From a virus, in IMG/VR virus record IMGVR_UViG_3300036770_004485: a stretch of DNA of 64,000 nt. One strand, written 5' to 3'. This document shows, piece by piece, positions 9,301 through 14,017 of this stretch. A program made the position numbers and the translations under genes. Numbering within the stretch: the first letter of the stretch is position 1; the number at the start of each line of letters is the position of its first letter. The notes below the pieces were generated by a model. The model was not told the origin of the DNA, ran no database searches, and saw only the letters and a program-made list of their open reading frames with translations.

Positions 9301-11792
9301 GAGAAGAAAGACTCCAAAGTTACAGTTTTTTCAACAGACCATCCAATAGCATCAAGAATTGTTTTTAGTGGTTCTAAAAATGCTTTTTCAAATTGAAGGT
9401 CATAATCAATGTATTGTTCTAGATCAAGTTCTTTTGGCCAATCTTGAATAAATGTCAAAACATTTTCATGGATTGGATTTGGTTTTTTCAAATAACAGAA
9501 CTTGATTTTTTCCCCATTTTGAATGAGAGAATATTTGTGTGTTAATTTTTTCTGTTTTATGTAGTAATTGAAAAGAAGTGCCCCACGAACATGAATAGGA
9601 GTTCCTTTTTCGTAAATTGAGTTTACTGATCTATACTTTTCAACATCAGAAACGGAACGAGGAAATGAAACTTCTTCTGGTTTGAGAGACTTGAATTCTT
9701 TTTTACACGTTGATACAAAATTAATTATATCATCTTCCGATCCATTCATCATAATTTTGAAAGAATCCTTTAGCATCTTTCGGCATGGTGCAGGAGTTGA
9801 TGATTTGACTGCTTCAATACCCATTACCTTTAGTTTCGGAGATTCATAACGAACTCCTTCGCTGTCCCAAACGTTGAGGATATAACGTTTCTTAGCAGTC
9901 CAGATTCCACGATCAGCAATGTTCTCTCGCTTCATCTGCATCTTTTGATCATATGCATTCACATATTCTGCCAGTTCTTTATAAGAACTTTCAATATATT
10001 TTTCAAGTTCCATTGCACAGATCTTATCAAGGAACGAAACAATGCTTTCAGTAGTTTTTTCTCTTCCCTGGTATACAGTTTTGACCAAAGGGCCCATATT
10101 GAGATAGATAGAATCAGTATCTGAAGCAATAACATAATCTTCACCCTCTGTTTTGAGAATATTATTTAAGTAGACATTCATTTTATTTTCAATCCACCTA
10201 ATTGATGCCTGACCAGAAAGTGTAATTGCTTCTGCATTTTCAAGTTTATAATATCGAAAATACTGATTACCAATTGCACCATAGGCAGAATTGAGTTGAA
10301 TCTTTCTTGCCATTTGAATGTTATTGCAACGAGCAATTTCTTTTTCAAGTTCTATCGTAGGAGTTTTTTCATACTGCTGTTTGGCAGCAATCATCTTCTT
10401 TTTGTAGATGGTACGATCTTCATAGATTTTTTCCATCAATTCTGGAAGAAATCCACGAAACTTTTTAGTATACATTGCACCATTGGCAGCAGTGGCATAC
10501 TTACCATCAGCAATAAAAGTCCCCGATAAGATTTTGTCCACAGAGCAACTTGGATGAGGAGTGTCCAAAAGAGTCTCTGGAGAAATGTTATATTGCATGA
10601 TGAGATGCGGATACAGACTATTCAAGTCAAAAGATACGACCCAATCATAACTACCTGGTTTAGGTTCTTTTACATATGCTCCTTCATACTTTTCATCCTT
10701 TGATGACTTTTTCTTTTGAGGAATGACAATGTTTCTTTTTTTGAGATAATTGTAGATAATAGAATCCCACATTCGGACTTGATAAAACACATCGGTAAAA
10801 TTTGCCTTTGCATCATATGCCATTGTAATAGCAAGTTCAATTAGTTTCATCTTGTCTTCCAAGCGGTCAACAAGTTCTACGTCAATAATGTTATACTCAA
10901 CAAACTTTTGCCAATTTCCTGTATAAAATTCTTTGAAGGTATCAAATTCAGAGTGATCAAGTTTTTTCTGACCAAGTTCAACCTCTGCAATATGATCTAG
11001 ACGATAAGATTCCTGGTTTGTATAAGTAAATTTCTTATACAAATCAAGATAATCCAGCTGAGTCACGCCACCAATATCCAAAGATTTGTGACAACGACCT
11101 TTGATGTATACTTCCTGTTCTGTGACAAGACCCCAAGGAGAAAGTCTTTTCATTCTTTTTTCGCCAAGAACACGTTTGAGACGACCACCAATGTATGGCA
11201 TATCAAATAACTGAATATTCCATCCAGTTATTACTTCTGGTGTCTGTTGTTCCCAATAAGAAATAAATTTTTCTAAAAGATCATGCTCATTGTTGCAGAC
11301 AATATATAAGAGATCTTTTCTTTGAGTCTTAAATGGTTTTACACCCCAAGTAATAATTTTCTTGGAGGCATAATCTTGTATTGTAATCGTAAGAAGTTCT
11401 TCGGAGCAAGTATTTACATCAGGAAATCCTTCCTCAGAAGTTGTTTCAATGTCAAGAGTTACAAGTTTGATTTTTGACATATCAAACTTGATTTCTTCTT
11501 CTGGATATTTTTCAGAAATATACTGATAAATGTAACGCTCATTGCCATAGATGTTGAACCCATCAACATCTTTATATTTTTCCAAAAACTCACGACAATC
11601 TTTGACATAACCTGGTTGAATAGGTTCTACAGTCTTACCATCTAAAGTTTTGTATTTTCCTTTTTCACTCTTTGAATCCACAAAAAGTGTTGGTTTGAAC
11701 TCATCTCTTAGAGAGAAATGTTCTCCATTATCATAACCACGAACGAGAAATTGATTCCCGACAAGTTGAACGTTAGTGTAAAATCGCATCAA
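9297..11792 (-). CDS. gp43: Family B DNA polymerase gp43
   Basis: ExoI LDIET; motif A FDLNSLYP; motif B KIQLNSAYG; motif C SDTDS; uninterrupted 831 aa. Confidence 0.98.
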   Translation of the reverse strand: MMRFYTNVQLVGNQFLVRGYDNGEHFSLRDEFKPTLFVDSKSEKGKYKTLDGKTVEPIQPGYVKDCREFLEKYKDVDGFNIYGNERYIYQYISEKYPEEEIKFDMSKIKLVTLDIETTSEEGFPDVNTCSEELLTITIQDYASKKIITWGVKPFKTQRKDLLYIVCNNEHDLLEKFISYWEQQTPEVITGWNIQLFDMPYIGGRLKRVLGEKRMKRLSPWGLVTEQEVYIKGRCHKSLDIGGVTQLDYLDLYKKFTYTNQESYRLDHIAEVELGQKKLDHSEFDTFKEFYTGNWQKFVEYNIIDVELVDRLEDKMKLIELAITMAYDAKANFTDVFYQVRMWDSIIYNYLKKRNIVIPQKKKSSKDEKYEGAYVKEPKPGSYDWVVSFDLNSLYPHLIMQYNISPETLLDTPHPSCSVDKILSGTFIADGKYATAANGAMYTKKFRGFLPELMEKIYEDRTIYKKKMIAAKQQYEKTPTIELEKEIARCNNIQMARKIQLNSAYGAIGNQYFRYYKLENAEAITLSGQASIRWIENKMNVYLNNILKTEGEDYVIASDTDSIYLNMGPLVKTVYQGREKTTESIVSFLDKICAMELEKYIESSYKELAEYVNAYDQKMQMKRENIADRGIWTAKKRYILNVWDSEGVRYESPKLKVMGIEAVKSSTPAPCRKMLKDSFKIMMNGSEDDIINFVSTCKKEFKSLKPEEVSFPRSVSDVEKYRSVNSIYEKGTPIHVRGALLFNYYIKQKKLTHKYSLIQNGEKIKFCYLKKPNPIHENVLTFIQDWPKELDLEQYIDYDLQFEKAFLEPLKTILDAIGWSVEKTVTLESFFS

Positions 11793-12049
11793 GAAATTAG
11801 AGACTTGTACTTTTCAAGGAGTTTGGTGTTGGGATCAACAATTGTCAAAATTTTATCTGAACTAATCATGAAGGTGTTTTGTACTGTGAAATCGATACAC
11901 CACGGTACAAGTTCGCCAGTTGATTGCACAATTACGTAGGGTTCTATAAGTTTGCAATCTGGTTCACCAAGTTCAGAACTAACTTCAATTAGTTGTGATA
12001 TCAGAATTGAATTGTTGGTCAGTAATAGAACTTTGATTTGTTTTTCCAT
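11789..12049 (-). CDS. Small beta-rich protein, putative Sm-like fold
   Basis: 86 aa; pattern shared with the 116-aa neighbour and with 28026..28421 (..P....PW....DKILTIVDP..LEKY). Confidence 0.7.
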   Translation of the reverse strand: MEKQIKVLLLTNNSILISQLIEVSSELGEPDCKLIEPYVIVQSTGELVPWCIDFTVQNTFMISSDKILTIVDPNTKLLEKYKSLIS

Positions 12050-12335
12050 TTTTTAATCCTTCTTTGTATTTTTCAACCACTTGGGGAATAGGGTCAACTA
12101 GGGTGATAATCCAATCTGGTGCTACTGGAATTTCTTTCTCTGCAGAAAGAGGAATCCATGGAGCAAAGACAATATCAATATTTTTGTTTGGAAAATATAT
12201 TGATTCTGGATCTAAAAAGCGAACTGTTGCAGGATTGCTGAACGTATATCCTACCACACGTTCGTTCATTAGAAGTTCTTTTACATCGGCAATTACATCT
12301 TCTCCCGACTTCAATACTGCAAGTTTAATGCTCAT
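11985..12335 (-). CDS. Small beta-rich protein, putative Sm-like fold
   Basis: 116 aa; VLKSGEDVIADV..NP..APWIP..DWIITLVDP..VEKY; perfect sigma70 promoter upstream. Confidence 0.75.
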   Translation of the reverse strand: MSIKLAVLKSGEDVIADVKELLMNERVVGYTFSNPATVRFLDPESIYFPNKNIDIVFAPWIPLSAEKEIPVAPDWIITLVDPIPQVVEKYKEGLKNGKTNQSSITDQQFNSDITTN

Positions 12336-12357: not shown

Positions 12358-12386
12358 ATTATAGCAATAAAAAAGGGAGGTGTCAA
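12358..12386 (-). promoter_or_regulatory. Perfect sigma70 promoter TTGACA-N17-TATAAT
   Basis: -35 at 12381-12386, -10 at 12358-12363; drives the Sm-like pair and gp43 operon. Confidence 0.9.
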
Positions 12387-12409
12387 CTGGATTTTGCCAG
12401 TTACCTCCC
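12369..12409 (-). terminator. Terminator after hsp20
   Basis: gggaggt..aactgg/ccagtt..acctccc bulged stem plus U6 tract; overlaps the sigma70 promoter. Confidence 0.75.
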
Positions 12410-12440
12410 GTGGCATAGCGCCGACGATATTCAATTGTAT

Positions 12441-12875
12441 TTATAGATAATCCTTTCGTGTATGATGCTCTGGAATCACTTTGCCCAAAGATACTATCAA
12501 TAGTCCATTATCAAAGGTAACATCTCGTACTTCTGTATCGTCGGAGAGAGTCCACGCCCTTTTGAAAGATCGTTGAGCCAATCCCTTATGGATGTAGTTG
12601 GCATCAGATTCTTTATCTTCTTTTTGTCCTTCAACAAAAAGTTTTCCATACTCTGTGTATACATGAACTTCCTCCTTCTTAAATCCTGCAAGTGCAAGTT
12701 CCAGACGAGATTCTACATTACTTACTTTGATGAAGTTATATGGTGGATAATTAGAACTTGTCTCATGAAGACTAAAGACACGATCAAAATAATCATCCAA
12801 TCCAATACTATTGCGAGTGATTCTATCCATTAATGATGGAAGATCCGCAGCAGTATAACGTGCAAGGTTTGTCAT
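12441..12875 (-). CDS. hsp20: Small heat-shock protein (alpha-crystallin domain)
   Basis: SSNYPPYN, LELALAGF, HKGLAQRSF, FDNGLL; likely start MTNLARY at 12875 with GGAG SD. Confidence 0.93.
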   Translation of the reverse strand: MTNLARYTAADLPSLMDRITRNSIGLDDYFDRVFSLHETSSNYPPYNFIKVSNVESRLELALAGFKKEEVHVYTEYGKLFVEGQKEDKESDANYIHKGLAQRSFKRAWTLSDDTEVRDVTFDNGLLIVSLGKVIPEHHTRKDYL

Positions 12876-12935
12876 TATGGTAGCTCCTTTGAAAGCGAGT
12901 TTGTATTTTGTGGACCCTTTCGGCATCCAATATTA

Positions 12936-12944
12936 ATTATACCA
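12936..12944 (-). promoter_or_regulatory. Extended -10 promoter TGgTATAAT for hsp20
   Basis: Immediately downstream of a terminator; no canonical -35. Confidence 0.65.
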
Positions 12945-12950
12945 AAAGAC

Positions 12951-12977
12951 AAAAAAAGACGGGTGGCGAAACCCGTC
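12951..12977 (-). terminator. Rho-independent terminator
   Basis: gacgggt-ggcgaa-acccgtc stem plus U7 tract. Confidence 0.85.
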
Positions 12978-13026
12978 CTTTAGTAGCGTATATTCCGTAT
13001 GTAGCGTGTCGCGCACGAAAGAGCGA
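12951..13026 (-). ncRNA. Candidate late small RNA (~76 nt)
   Basis: Bounded by TATAAATA (13032-13039) and a terminator; no ATG-led ORF; GUCGC/GCGAC hairpin; two ACGCUAC repeats. Confidence 0.55.
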
Positions 13027-13031
13027 CGCTT

Positions 13032-13039
13032 TATTTATA
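13032..13039 (-). promoter_or_regulatory. Late promoter TATAAATA
   Basis: Exact consensus overlapping the stop codon of the 2OG oxygenase gene. Confidence 0.75.
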
Positions 13040-13592
13040 GTTCGTTTATTAAGAAGGGGCAATTTATTCTATCGAATAGATCAAAATTATATGATATTAT
13101 TGTTTTTCTACTACCTTCATTTTTTGGTGCTCTATGAATTATATGACTAGGGAAAAAAATGATATCTCCTTCTTTAGCGTTTATTTTTGTTATTTTGTTA
13201 TTGAACGGATGAAGTATTTCAGTTTGAGGTGAATTTTTTGGAAGTTCTAAATAATAAACGCCAGTGTAATGTCCACCATGAATGTGCCATCCATGATATG
13301 ATTTGTTTTCATATTGTTGATACCAAATTGCACTTAGTTTTCCAATTTTTTGCACTCCTATCTCTAATAGAAATTTTTCTAATATTTTTTCAAATAGTGG
13401 CAAAAAATATTTTACCCATGGTCTTTCAAAATCATCTCCAACTTTCCAATCAAATTTAGTTATTGTGTCTATATAAGCATTTTTTGAATGATTATTATCA
13501 TTATGAATGCAGTCTAAGATGATTTTTTTTACTTTTTCGTGATTATCTAGCGTAAACTTACATATACAATCTTTTATAATTTGTTTTTTCAC
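13035..13592 (-). CDS. 2OG-Fe(II) oxygenase-like protein (HxH type)
   Basis: WYQQY..YHGWHIH..TGVYYL, EGDIIFFPSHIIHRA..RKTIISYN; likely GTG start at 13592 overlapping the regA TGA. Confidence 0.8.
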   Translation of the reverse strand: MKKQIIKDCICKFTLDNHEKVKKIILDCIHNDNNHSKNAYIDTITKFDWKVGDDFERPWVKYFLPLFEKILEKFLLEIGVQKIGKLSAIWYQQYENKSYHGWHIHGGHYTGVYYLELPKNSPQTEILHPFNNKITKINAKEGDIIFFPSHIIHRAPKNEGSRKTIISYNFDLFDRINCPFLINEL

Positions 13593-14017
13593 TCTTGAAC
13601 TTTTTTCTTTCCAATATTGTATTTTGTTTCCAAAGTCCATTCTTCCTTCTCTTTGAAAGAGAGAACTTTGATTTGGTTCAGAGGAGCAATTTCAGTAATA
13701 GTCTCTGCATTGACTACTTCAATAAGACCCCAATCAGATAGTAACTGAGTAATACGATTACGACGCTGAACATCGTTCGGAGTAAGATTTGCATGTTTAC
13801 CATCCAAAGCAAACAACTCTTTGAAATGAACGATAAAATATCGACCCTGTTTATGCAAAATATGACAGGATTGATACAGTTTCTTCTCTTTACGAGATGC
13901 AACACCAATACGTGTCAGAGTTTCTCTAACTTTGAGAAAGTCATCTGGTTCTCTCAAAATTACTTCAATCATTTGGTCTTGTGACCACTTCACTTCAGGT
14001 TCTCTCACCGTACTCAT
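13589..14017 (-). CDS. regA: Translational repressor RegA
   Basis: PDDFLKVRETLTRIGVAS, LYQSCHILHKQGRYFIVHFKELFALDG. Confidence 0.96.
   Translation of the reverse strand: MSTVREPEVKWSQDQMIEVILREPDDFLKVRETLTRIGVASRKEKKLYQSCHILHKQGRYFIVHFKELFALDGKHANLTPNDVQRRNRITQLLSDWGLIEVVNAETITEIAPLNQIKVLSFKEKEEWTLETKYNIGKKKVQE

Follow-up and report, generated by a model that had tools for sequence, protein, structure and literature searches.

Several described systems resemble the locus considered here in one respect or another. Promoter-early stem-loop (PeSL) cassettes have reportedly been recognised in T4-type phages by Arbiol, Comeau and Krisch in 2010, and phage PhiTE is said to carry a pseudo-ToxI that acts as a mimic of a type III antitoxin, work attributed to Blower et al. 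in 2012. ToxI itself consists of 36-nt repeats in tandem that are homologous to a locus of the host. In Stx phages, StxS is a trans-acting regulatory small RNA made by the lambdoid unit that extends from PR' to tR' (PMC7547250). In cyanomyoviruses, late promoters were located by Sullivan et al. through the sequence TATAAAT (PMC3037559), and an abiF RNA motif (RF03085) of 37 nt has been reported once, in S-CREM1 at positions 10531-10567 (PMC9964418). The cyanomyovirus S-PM2 carries CfrI, a non-coding RNA that spans several hundred nucleotides in cis-antisense orientation to psbA and the F-CphI gene (Millard et al. 2010, as cited in PMC10690425); the citing paper, of 2023, catalogues 10,006 candidate RNAs of viruses.

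The locus described here lies in a 64,000-nt stretch of the IMG/VR virus record IMGVR_UViG_3300036770_004485, hereafter the window, which comes from a T4-like cyanomyovirus whose best phage matches were 70-85% identical (blastn), with no close sequenced relative. The minus strand is the coding strand for all genes of the window, and around the locus it reads, from 5' to 3', Dam-like methylase, gp62, regA, 2OG-Fe(II) oxygenase, RNA unit, hsp20, two DUF6561 genes and the gp43 DNA polymerase. An earlier note on this DNA had placed an ORF-less late small RNA between the regA cluster and hsp20. The hsp20 side of this placement was correct, and the immediate upstream neighbour proved to be the oxygenase gene, with regA one gene further upstream. 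The parts that the note had listed, namely a perfect late promoter, a 5' hairpin, two ACGCUAC copies flanking a GGAA and a terminator of the unit's own, were all present at the positions that it gave (Table 1). As had also been stated, the predicted transcript contained no ATG and the unit was GC-rich (50.6%, against 36.4% for the window). The fold z-score of the unit was -3.1, and its 20-mer core occurred once in the window and was matched in 0 of 100 shuffles. A BoxA-like sequence in the window copy, CGCUCUUU, was taken as a coincidence because it is not conserved in the other subtypes described below.

Table 1. Features of the RNA unit and its surroundings in the window (positions are those of the window).
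Feature	Position	Strand	Remarks
regA	14017..13592	minus	
2OG-Fe(II) oxygenase gene	13640..13035	minus	201 aa; directly upstream of the RNA unit
RNA unit	13039..12951	minus	late box to T run
Late promoter box TATAAATA	13032..13039	minus	T4-type, perfect match; its TAA (13037-13035) is the stop codon of the oxygenase gene
Hairpin P1	13008..13027	minus	arms GUCGC (13027-13023) and GCGAC (13012-13008), 5 bp; loop UCUUUCGUGC
UUCGUGC in P1 loop	13019-13013	minus	invariant in the family
Single-stranded tract ACGCUACAUACGGAAUAUACGCUAC	12983..13007	minus	unpaired in the minimum-energy fold
CUACA and CGGAA	13004-13000 and 12997-12993	minus	conserved words in the tract; GGAA at 12996-12993
ACGCTAC copies	13007-13001 and 12989-12983	minus	spacing 18 nt; the sole two in 64 kb
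Intrinsic terminator	12951..12981	minus	stem AAAGGACGGGU/ACCCGUCUUUU (12981-12954), 11 pairs, 6-nt loop
U7 tail of terminator	12957-12951	minus	
Extended -10 promoter TGGTATAAT	12936..12944	minus	assigned to hsp20, not to the RNA unit
hsp20 5' leader	12932..12870	minus	
hsp20	12875..12441	minus	downstream of the RNA unit
Second ORF-less late unit	12445..12362	minus	directly after hsp20; TATAAATA at 12445-12438
TTGACA-17-TATAAT promoter	12386-12358		perfect; embedded in the 3' arm of the second unit
DUF6561 gene	12335..11985	minus	E 6e-7
DUF6561 gene	12049..11789	minus	E 4e-31

Conservation provided the strongest support for the unit. It recurred at 80-98% identity (blastn) in S-SM2, SynMITS9220M01, Bellamy, Syn19, Syn2 and the RB11-B group, and a copy at a different site, near gp32, was found in S-BM3. 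Two phages of Prochlorococcus, P-HM2 and P-TIM68, were added as carriers by the covariance model. Among isolate records, the A-like core was found in 9, the B-like core in 34 and the D-like core in 232, at one place per record; these sets overlap in part and together comprise approximately 270 records, and all isolate carriers are phages of Synechococcus or Prochlorococcus. In IMG/VR, the exact core pattern matched at least 119 loci, approximately four of them chance matches in GC-rich coding DNA. As a guard against circularity, loci were additionally fetched with the Hsp20 protein alone; this retrieval recovered stems and linkers outside the reach of the core pattern and yielded 32 further copies among 80 loci, bringing the IMG/VR copies from both routes to more than 150. 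Whole-genome scans with the covariance model returned exactly one copy each in S-SM2, S-BM3, Syn19, Bellamy and RB11-B, and the scan of the window likewise returned one, with no second copy elsewhere in the 64 kb. The same type of whole-genome scan found no copy in S-PM2 and P-SSM2 and only noise in Syn9. Not every cyanomyovirus needs the unit, then, since these two phages, and probably Syn9 too, are without it.

Outside phages, the core pattern was sought in one genome for each of 185,579 GTDB species of bacteria and archaea and gave five matches, all in GC-rich non-cyanobacteria and consistent with chance, and none in cyanobacteria; because the pattern was limited to the A and B cores, distant homologues could escape it. 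This result, together with the lack of an adjacent toxin gene, spoke against the suggestion that the RNA mimics an antitoxin derived from the host. The comparison with Rfam that the earlier note had proposed gave no family at gathering score anywhere in the window (Rfam 15). At E<=10, the surroundings of the unit (12800-13200) returned noise only (STnc50, L20_leader, RefA9 and Bp1_162, far below threshold), abiF was not among the matches, and in six relatives nothing fell on the unit at E<=1. A likeness to the preQ1-I and glutamine riboswitches, based on shared words, was dismissed because neither model matched, and a search for tRNA or tmRNA found none. In a literature search, neither the core sequence nor the unit was found to have been described; the 2023 catalogue could list the motif. 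As judged from these searches, the family is restricted to T4-like cyanophages (Kyanoviridae), and the unit is a new family of putative phage small RNA without a catalogued relative in Rfam.

Across the family, the predicted RNA was 63-84 nt long (median 75). Its 5' hairpin, P1, comprised 5-9 bp and occurred as four stem types, which define the subtypes: A, GUCGC/GCGAC (the type of the window); B, GUGUC or GUGCU/GGCAC; C, GUGCC/GGCAC; and D, GAGACC/GGUCUC. Measured on a structure-aware alignment, P1 was paired in 100% of 350 cells, compared with 72.6 ± 1.8% in shuffled controls (0 of 500 reached the observed value) and 24-63% in slid controls. Three pairs were altered on both sides, in 83 cells. 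The model used for this purpose, R2, was built from a gap-free seed alignment; an earlier covariance model, R1, had placed P1 in the wrong register (53% paired), and MAFFT with RNAalifold on 96 sequences missed both helices. The covariation reflects few independent events, because the changes amount to a few lineage-level switches among the four stem types. The expectation that the hairpin would be conserved in related phages was thus borne out, in covarying form and in units 80-98% identical, although the same expectation for the repeats held in subtype A only.

Stem covariation would fit a hairpin in DNA equally well, and one site of the unit adjoins gp32. The unit could accordingly be conceived as a DNA-level element, either a single-stranded DNA hairpin or a protein site for replication, recombination or packaging. 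However, its orientation strictly followed the gene strand, and a promoter box and a U-tailed terminator bracketed every copy. As for a tiny peptide gene, an ATG was present in 6 of the 77 distinct sequences and absent from the other 71, no Shine-Dalgarno sequence was found, and close relatives differed by frame-breaking indels of 1 and 2 nt within the unit. We therefore regard an origin of the conservation in DNA function or in a peptide as extremely improbable. In the Syn19 record (L004:604-729), a 41-aa hypothetical protein, Syn19_156, has been called across the RNA unit; this call is probably spurious, given the indels and the lack of start codons in the family.

The apical loop of P1 consisted of 0-3 variable nucleotides followed by UUCGUGC, which did not vary, including in the 32 copies that had been retrieved through the Hsp20 protein and not through a sequence pattern. 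Downstream of P1, a tract of the form (Y)CUAC(A/G), 2-5 nt and then (C)GGAA was kept in all copies and was unpaired in the minimum-energy fold (median 86%, 77 sequences). A terminator followed the core on its 3' side in 96 of 98 distinct pattern-derived copies among the matches listed, with a median stem energy of -13.1 kcal/mol, and its stem sequences were unrelated between copies. A pseudoknot between loop and tract (UUUCG with CGGAA) was considered and rejected: it can form, with 96% of cells paired, yet covariation was lacking, either for or against it, and where CGGAA has A or G in place of C, the change is not compensated. In one B subtype (L009, L018, L077 and similar loci), the 5' arm and flank repeat the loop word in a tandem UUUCGUGC-UUUUCGUGC, and an alternative register of the hairpin is possible there.

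The earlier note had regarded the twin ACGCUAC words as the working part, which would bind a dimeric protein and serve as a decoy antitoxin for an AbiF/HEPN or type III toxin, or as a sponge for a RegA/Csr-like protein. In favour of this model, the window shares its two exact words, 18 nt apart, with other phages of subtype A, many copies of subtypes B to D have CCCUAUAAAGAGG as a degenerate second word behind the first, and regA is the commonest upstream neighbour. The pseudo-ToxI of PhiTE reportedly offers a precedent for antitoxin mimicry. Nevertheless, two ACGCUAC copies were present in only 19 of the 77 distinct sequences, all of subtype A, whereas subtypes B, C and D carried a single (C/U)CUAC(A/G) word; P-HM2, P-TIM68 and copies with other terminators had no second word. 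Because the second ACGCUAC is confined to subtype A, a twin-repeat sponge for a dimer is not the mechanism of the family. In addition, 37% of the copies listed lay away from regA. Neither the tandem repeats of approximately 34-45 nt expected of a type III antitoxin nor a nearby toxin gene was found, and the pattern scan gave no homologous RNA in any cyanobacterial species genome. The relationship to abiF also failed, since RF03085 did not match and the location, between a 2OG-Fe(II) oxygenase gene and hsp20, is not upstream of an abiF-type gene, as would be expected of that motif; the cyanomyovirus abiF match to which the earlier note referred is that in S-CREM1 (PMC9964418), a different 37-nt element. 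The model in which the two words bind a dimeric protein is therefore considered very unlikely. What comparative evidence supported in the earlier proposal was the putative late non-coding RNA as an ORF-less, conserved and self-contained module of promoter and terminator.

A late promoter box was present in every copy of the family; among the matches listed, it read ATAAATA in 72, CTAAATA in 22 and ATATATA in 2, and in 67 of the 77 distinct sequences, 4-5 nt separated an (A/C)TAAATA box from the P1 base downstream of it. In the window, ATAAATA occurred 19 times on the gene strand and not once on the other strand, and 18 of the 25 (A/C)TAAATA boxes were intergenic, 17-40 nt before an ORF. This placement is the one expected of T4-type late promoters, and we infer that the predicted box of the RNA unit fires during infection. 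Two points count against the reading as an RNA gene: stop codons overlap the box, and two of the reading frames through ATAAATA(A/G) contain stops. In the window, only two boxes are directed into a terminator without an ORF, that of the RNA unit and one directly after hsp20.

The boxes also provide a usable late-promoter map for the phage of the window. The one after hsp20 opens a second ORF-less late unit of approximately 60 nt (GAAUAUCGUCGGCGC...AACUGGCAAAAUCCAGUU...), with a U6 terminator, a fold energy of -24 kcal/mol and a z-score of -3.0. This second unit was found in 353 phage records at 80-95% identity (blastn), and its site varied: Bellamy and S-SM2 have it after hsp20, and in Syn19, S-RIM8 and S-H35 it lies elsewhere. 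It had no match in Rfam. A perfect TTGACA-17-TATAAT is embedded in its 3' arm, so the promoter of the next gene may account for part of its conservation, as in a PeSL cassette. Another late box directed into a terminator was observed in Syn9 (L218:1500-1565; NC_008296, approximately 119410-119475), a phage without the RNA family: CATAAATA is followed after approximately 20 nt by a GGGGGU/ACCCCC terminator and then by a second box, CCTAAATA, before the next gene.

The genomic neighbours were compared in 114 pattern-derived copies among the matches listed, chosen regardless of what lay beside them. In this set, regA was upstream in 63%, hsp20 downstream in 58% and both in 32%, and the flanking genes fell into 17 upstream and 26 downstream clusters (16 and 25 besides regA and hsp20, respectively); across all copies, there were at least 21 upstream and 29 downstream clusters. 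No same-strand gene lay within 300 nt downstream in 12 of the 114. The P-HM2 copy (GU075905, 5885-5968) follows gp32 at a convergent junction, and approximately 1 kb upstream of it lies a strong match to the manA RNA (L217:387-585; RF01745, 170 bits), a known motif. Other copies are situated between gp18, the tail sheath gene, and gp19, or after DUF680, glutaredoxin or ParB-like genes. In the window, the oxygenase gene has been inserted between regA and the box, and in the loci L143 and L187, a gene has been inserted between the terminator and hsp20. Since these insertions sit exactly outside both ends, the box and the T run mark the boundaries of a module, and the unit moves, or is spared, as one block from box to T run. 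The varied neighbours argue against a leader or attenuator, or a 3' tail, of one particular gene. The unit thus showed what is expected of a free-standing small RNA, namely a terminator of its own without an ORF and conservation independent of its neighbours, and the combination of fixed parts and variable flanks favours an autonomous late small-RNA gene over a leader or an untranslated tail.

The same surroundings could be explained by a regulatory cassette without any trans-acting RNA, comparable to the PeSL cassettes, in which a structured 3' end or terminator of the upstream gene is joined to promoters for the downstream gene, and the core stabilises or processes the upstream mRNA or serves recombination. 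Among the copies listed, the unit abutted the stop codon of a same-strand ORF in 151 of 155. A TGnTATAAT-like box came next after the T run in most contexts with a same-strand downstream gene and was missing in P-HM2, where no gene follows on that strand. The unit occupies the plastic region from regA to gp43, with genes inserted exactly at its edges, and the second ORF-less unit of the window embeds a perfect sigma-70 promoter. However, shuffling of the PeSL type requires several copies per genome, and the single copy of the unit therefore argues against a recombination cassette of this kind. A plain terminator and promoter would also leave unexplained the covarying extra hairpin, the invariant loop and a box at a fixed distance of 4-5 nt, and the upstream genes span all temporal classes, including those of regA, gp32 and gp18. 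On balance, a cassette that acts without a trans RNA seems unlikely. The upstream gene needs the terminator as well, so that some of the module must work in cis under any reading.

A further possibility is that the conserved RNA is a late leader or conditional terminator acting in cis, which would set read-through into the downstream gene and leave the short RNA as a by-product; it might be an aptamer resembling a riboswitch, an antitermination signal of the put or nut kind, or a switch of the lambda PR'-tR' type. Attenuators and lambda PR'-tR' show the same succession of promoter, conserved structured RNA, terminator and gene; hsp20 would come to be expressed late, and a compact pseudoknot between loop and tail is feasible. 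Yet the downstream genes belong to 26 unrelated clusters, or are missing altogether within 300 nt in the 12 listed copies mentioned above, and they have promoters of their own. In P-HM2, read-through at the convergent junction would run antisense into baseplate genes. Furthermore, P1 and the terminator coexisted in the minimum-energy fold of 76 of the 77 sequences, the pseudoknot lacked covariation and no riboswitch family matched. As the terminator sequences differ completely between copies, there is no conserved antiterminator pairing; thus, neither a constant class of downstream gene nor a conserved alternative pairing of sensor and terminator, both expected of riboswitches and attenuators, was found. 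This explanation is considered quite improbable.

Downstream of the unit, the 5' leader of hsp20 was itself conserved in approximately 150 cyanomyovirus records. It matched the ROSE_3 RNA thermometer below threshold, scoring 24 bits where the gathering cutoff is 43, and the leaders of four other phages did so at 23-25 bits. In its first hairpin, the stem is kept while the tetraloop alternates between GAAA, UUCG and GUAA in relatives. The two small genes that follow hsp20 match Pfam DUF6561 (Table 1).

Taken together, these results make it probable, though well short of assured, that the unit is an autonomous, single-copy non-coding RNA gene of approximately 75 nt and a member of a large family confined to T4-like cyanophages (Kyanoviridae). 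In this autonomous gene, the late transcription machinery of the phage would start at the (A/C)TAAATA box, the 5' end of the RNA would lie at or beside the P1 base and its 3' end at the intrinsic terminator. The mature RNA would then comprise a 5' hairpin presenting UUCGUGC, an unpaired tract with CUAC(A/G) and (C)GGAA, and the terminator hairpin. A hairpin, an exposed tract and a terminator are how trans-acting small RNAs are usually built, and we infer that the RNA accumulates and acts in trans late in infection.

Loop and tract might form the recognition surface for one conserved partner, which could be a protein or an RNA and of phage or host origin. The loop is invariant despite the changing stem and the tract keeps its two words, which points to sequence-specific recognition by a single conserved partner. 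The UUCG within UUCGUGC fits the YUNR turn known from the loops by which antisense RNAs recognise their targets; kissing between two RNAs is accordingly no less plausible than binding of a protein. Within the window, the complement of the loop, GCACGAA, occurred 5 times against 3.5 expected, its lone mRNA-sense site lying within a coding region, and the complement of the tract occurred 9 times against 14 expected, so that neither was in excess. Pairing of the loop with the loop of the hsp20 leader hairpin (CGAAAG) was rejected because of the alternating tetraloop of that hairpin.

Cyanomyoviruses are among the most abundant viruses of the ocean and control populations of Synechococcus and Prochlorococcus, and their regulation has so far been read almost wholly through proteins. 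A 7-nt loop that does not vary across phages whose proteins differ by 15-30% suggests a specific, strongly selected interaction that has yet to be named. More tentatively, T4-like cyanophages could possess an undescribed layer of dedicated late small RNAs, of which this family would be a nearly ubiquitous representative, its invariant loop engaging a conserved factor of host or phage; we put this forward as a possibility that we hold to be doubtful. Such RNAs might, for example, act as decoys against a host defence or nuclease, or as kissing-loop regulators of late translation or mRNA decay. The gene is a short module carried by cultured phages whose hosts are tractable (P-HM2, Syn19, Syn33, S-SM2 and the S-RIM series), so that the question can be tested directly. 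The annotation of the RNA unit also needs to be put right.

Compared with the described systems, the unit shares with the PeSL cassettes a short conserved intergenic stem-loop or terminator with promoter boxes, placed at the edges of shuffled genes in plastic regions; PeSL cassettes, however, occur in many copies per genome with early promoters overlapping the stem-loop, whereas the unit is single-copy, begins with a late box and has an extra covarying hairpin. Like the pseudo-ToxI of PhiTE, it is a putative non-coding RNA of a phage, has short repeats without a toxin gene beside them and would, under the model of the earlier note, act as a decoy, but in contrast to ToxI, its word has 7 nt, is subtype-specific and has no host homologue that our scan could find. 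With the abiF motif of S-CREM1 it has in common that both are small ORF-less RNAs of T4-like cyanophages; the abiF hairpin motif has 37 nt and lies at a different locus, and the unit fails the abiF model even at E<=10. CfrI is likewise a non-coding RNA of a T4-like cyanophage, although it is antisense and belongs to S-PM2, from which the intergenic unit of approximately 75 nt is absent. A further likeness in layout is to the lambda 6S RNA and StxS (PMC7547250). The lambda PR' unit is the entry to a whole late operon, reached through read-through by the Q antiterminator, whereas the genes downstream of the cyanophage unit are varied or absent, its promoter is of the gp55-dependent T4 type with no known Q-like factor, and its sequence is unrelated. 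In both cases, nonetheless, a phage late promoter, putative in the cyanophage unit, leads within a few dozen nucleotides into a terminator, and the product, predicted for the cyanophage unit, is a short RNA without an ORF.
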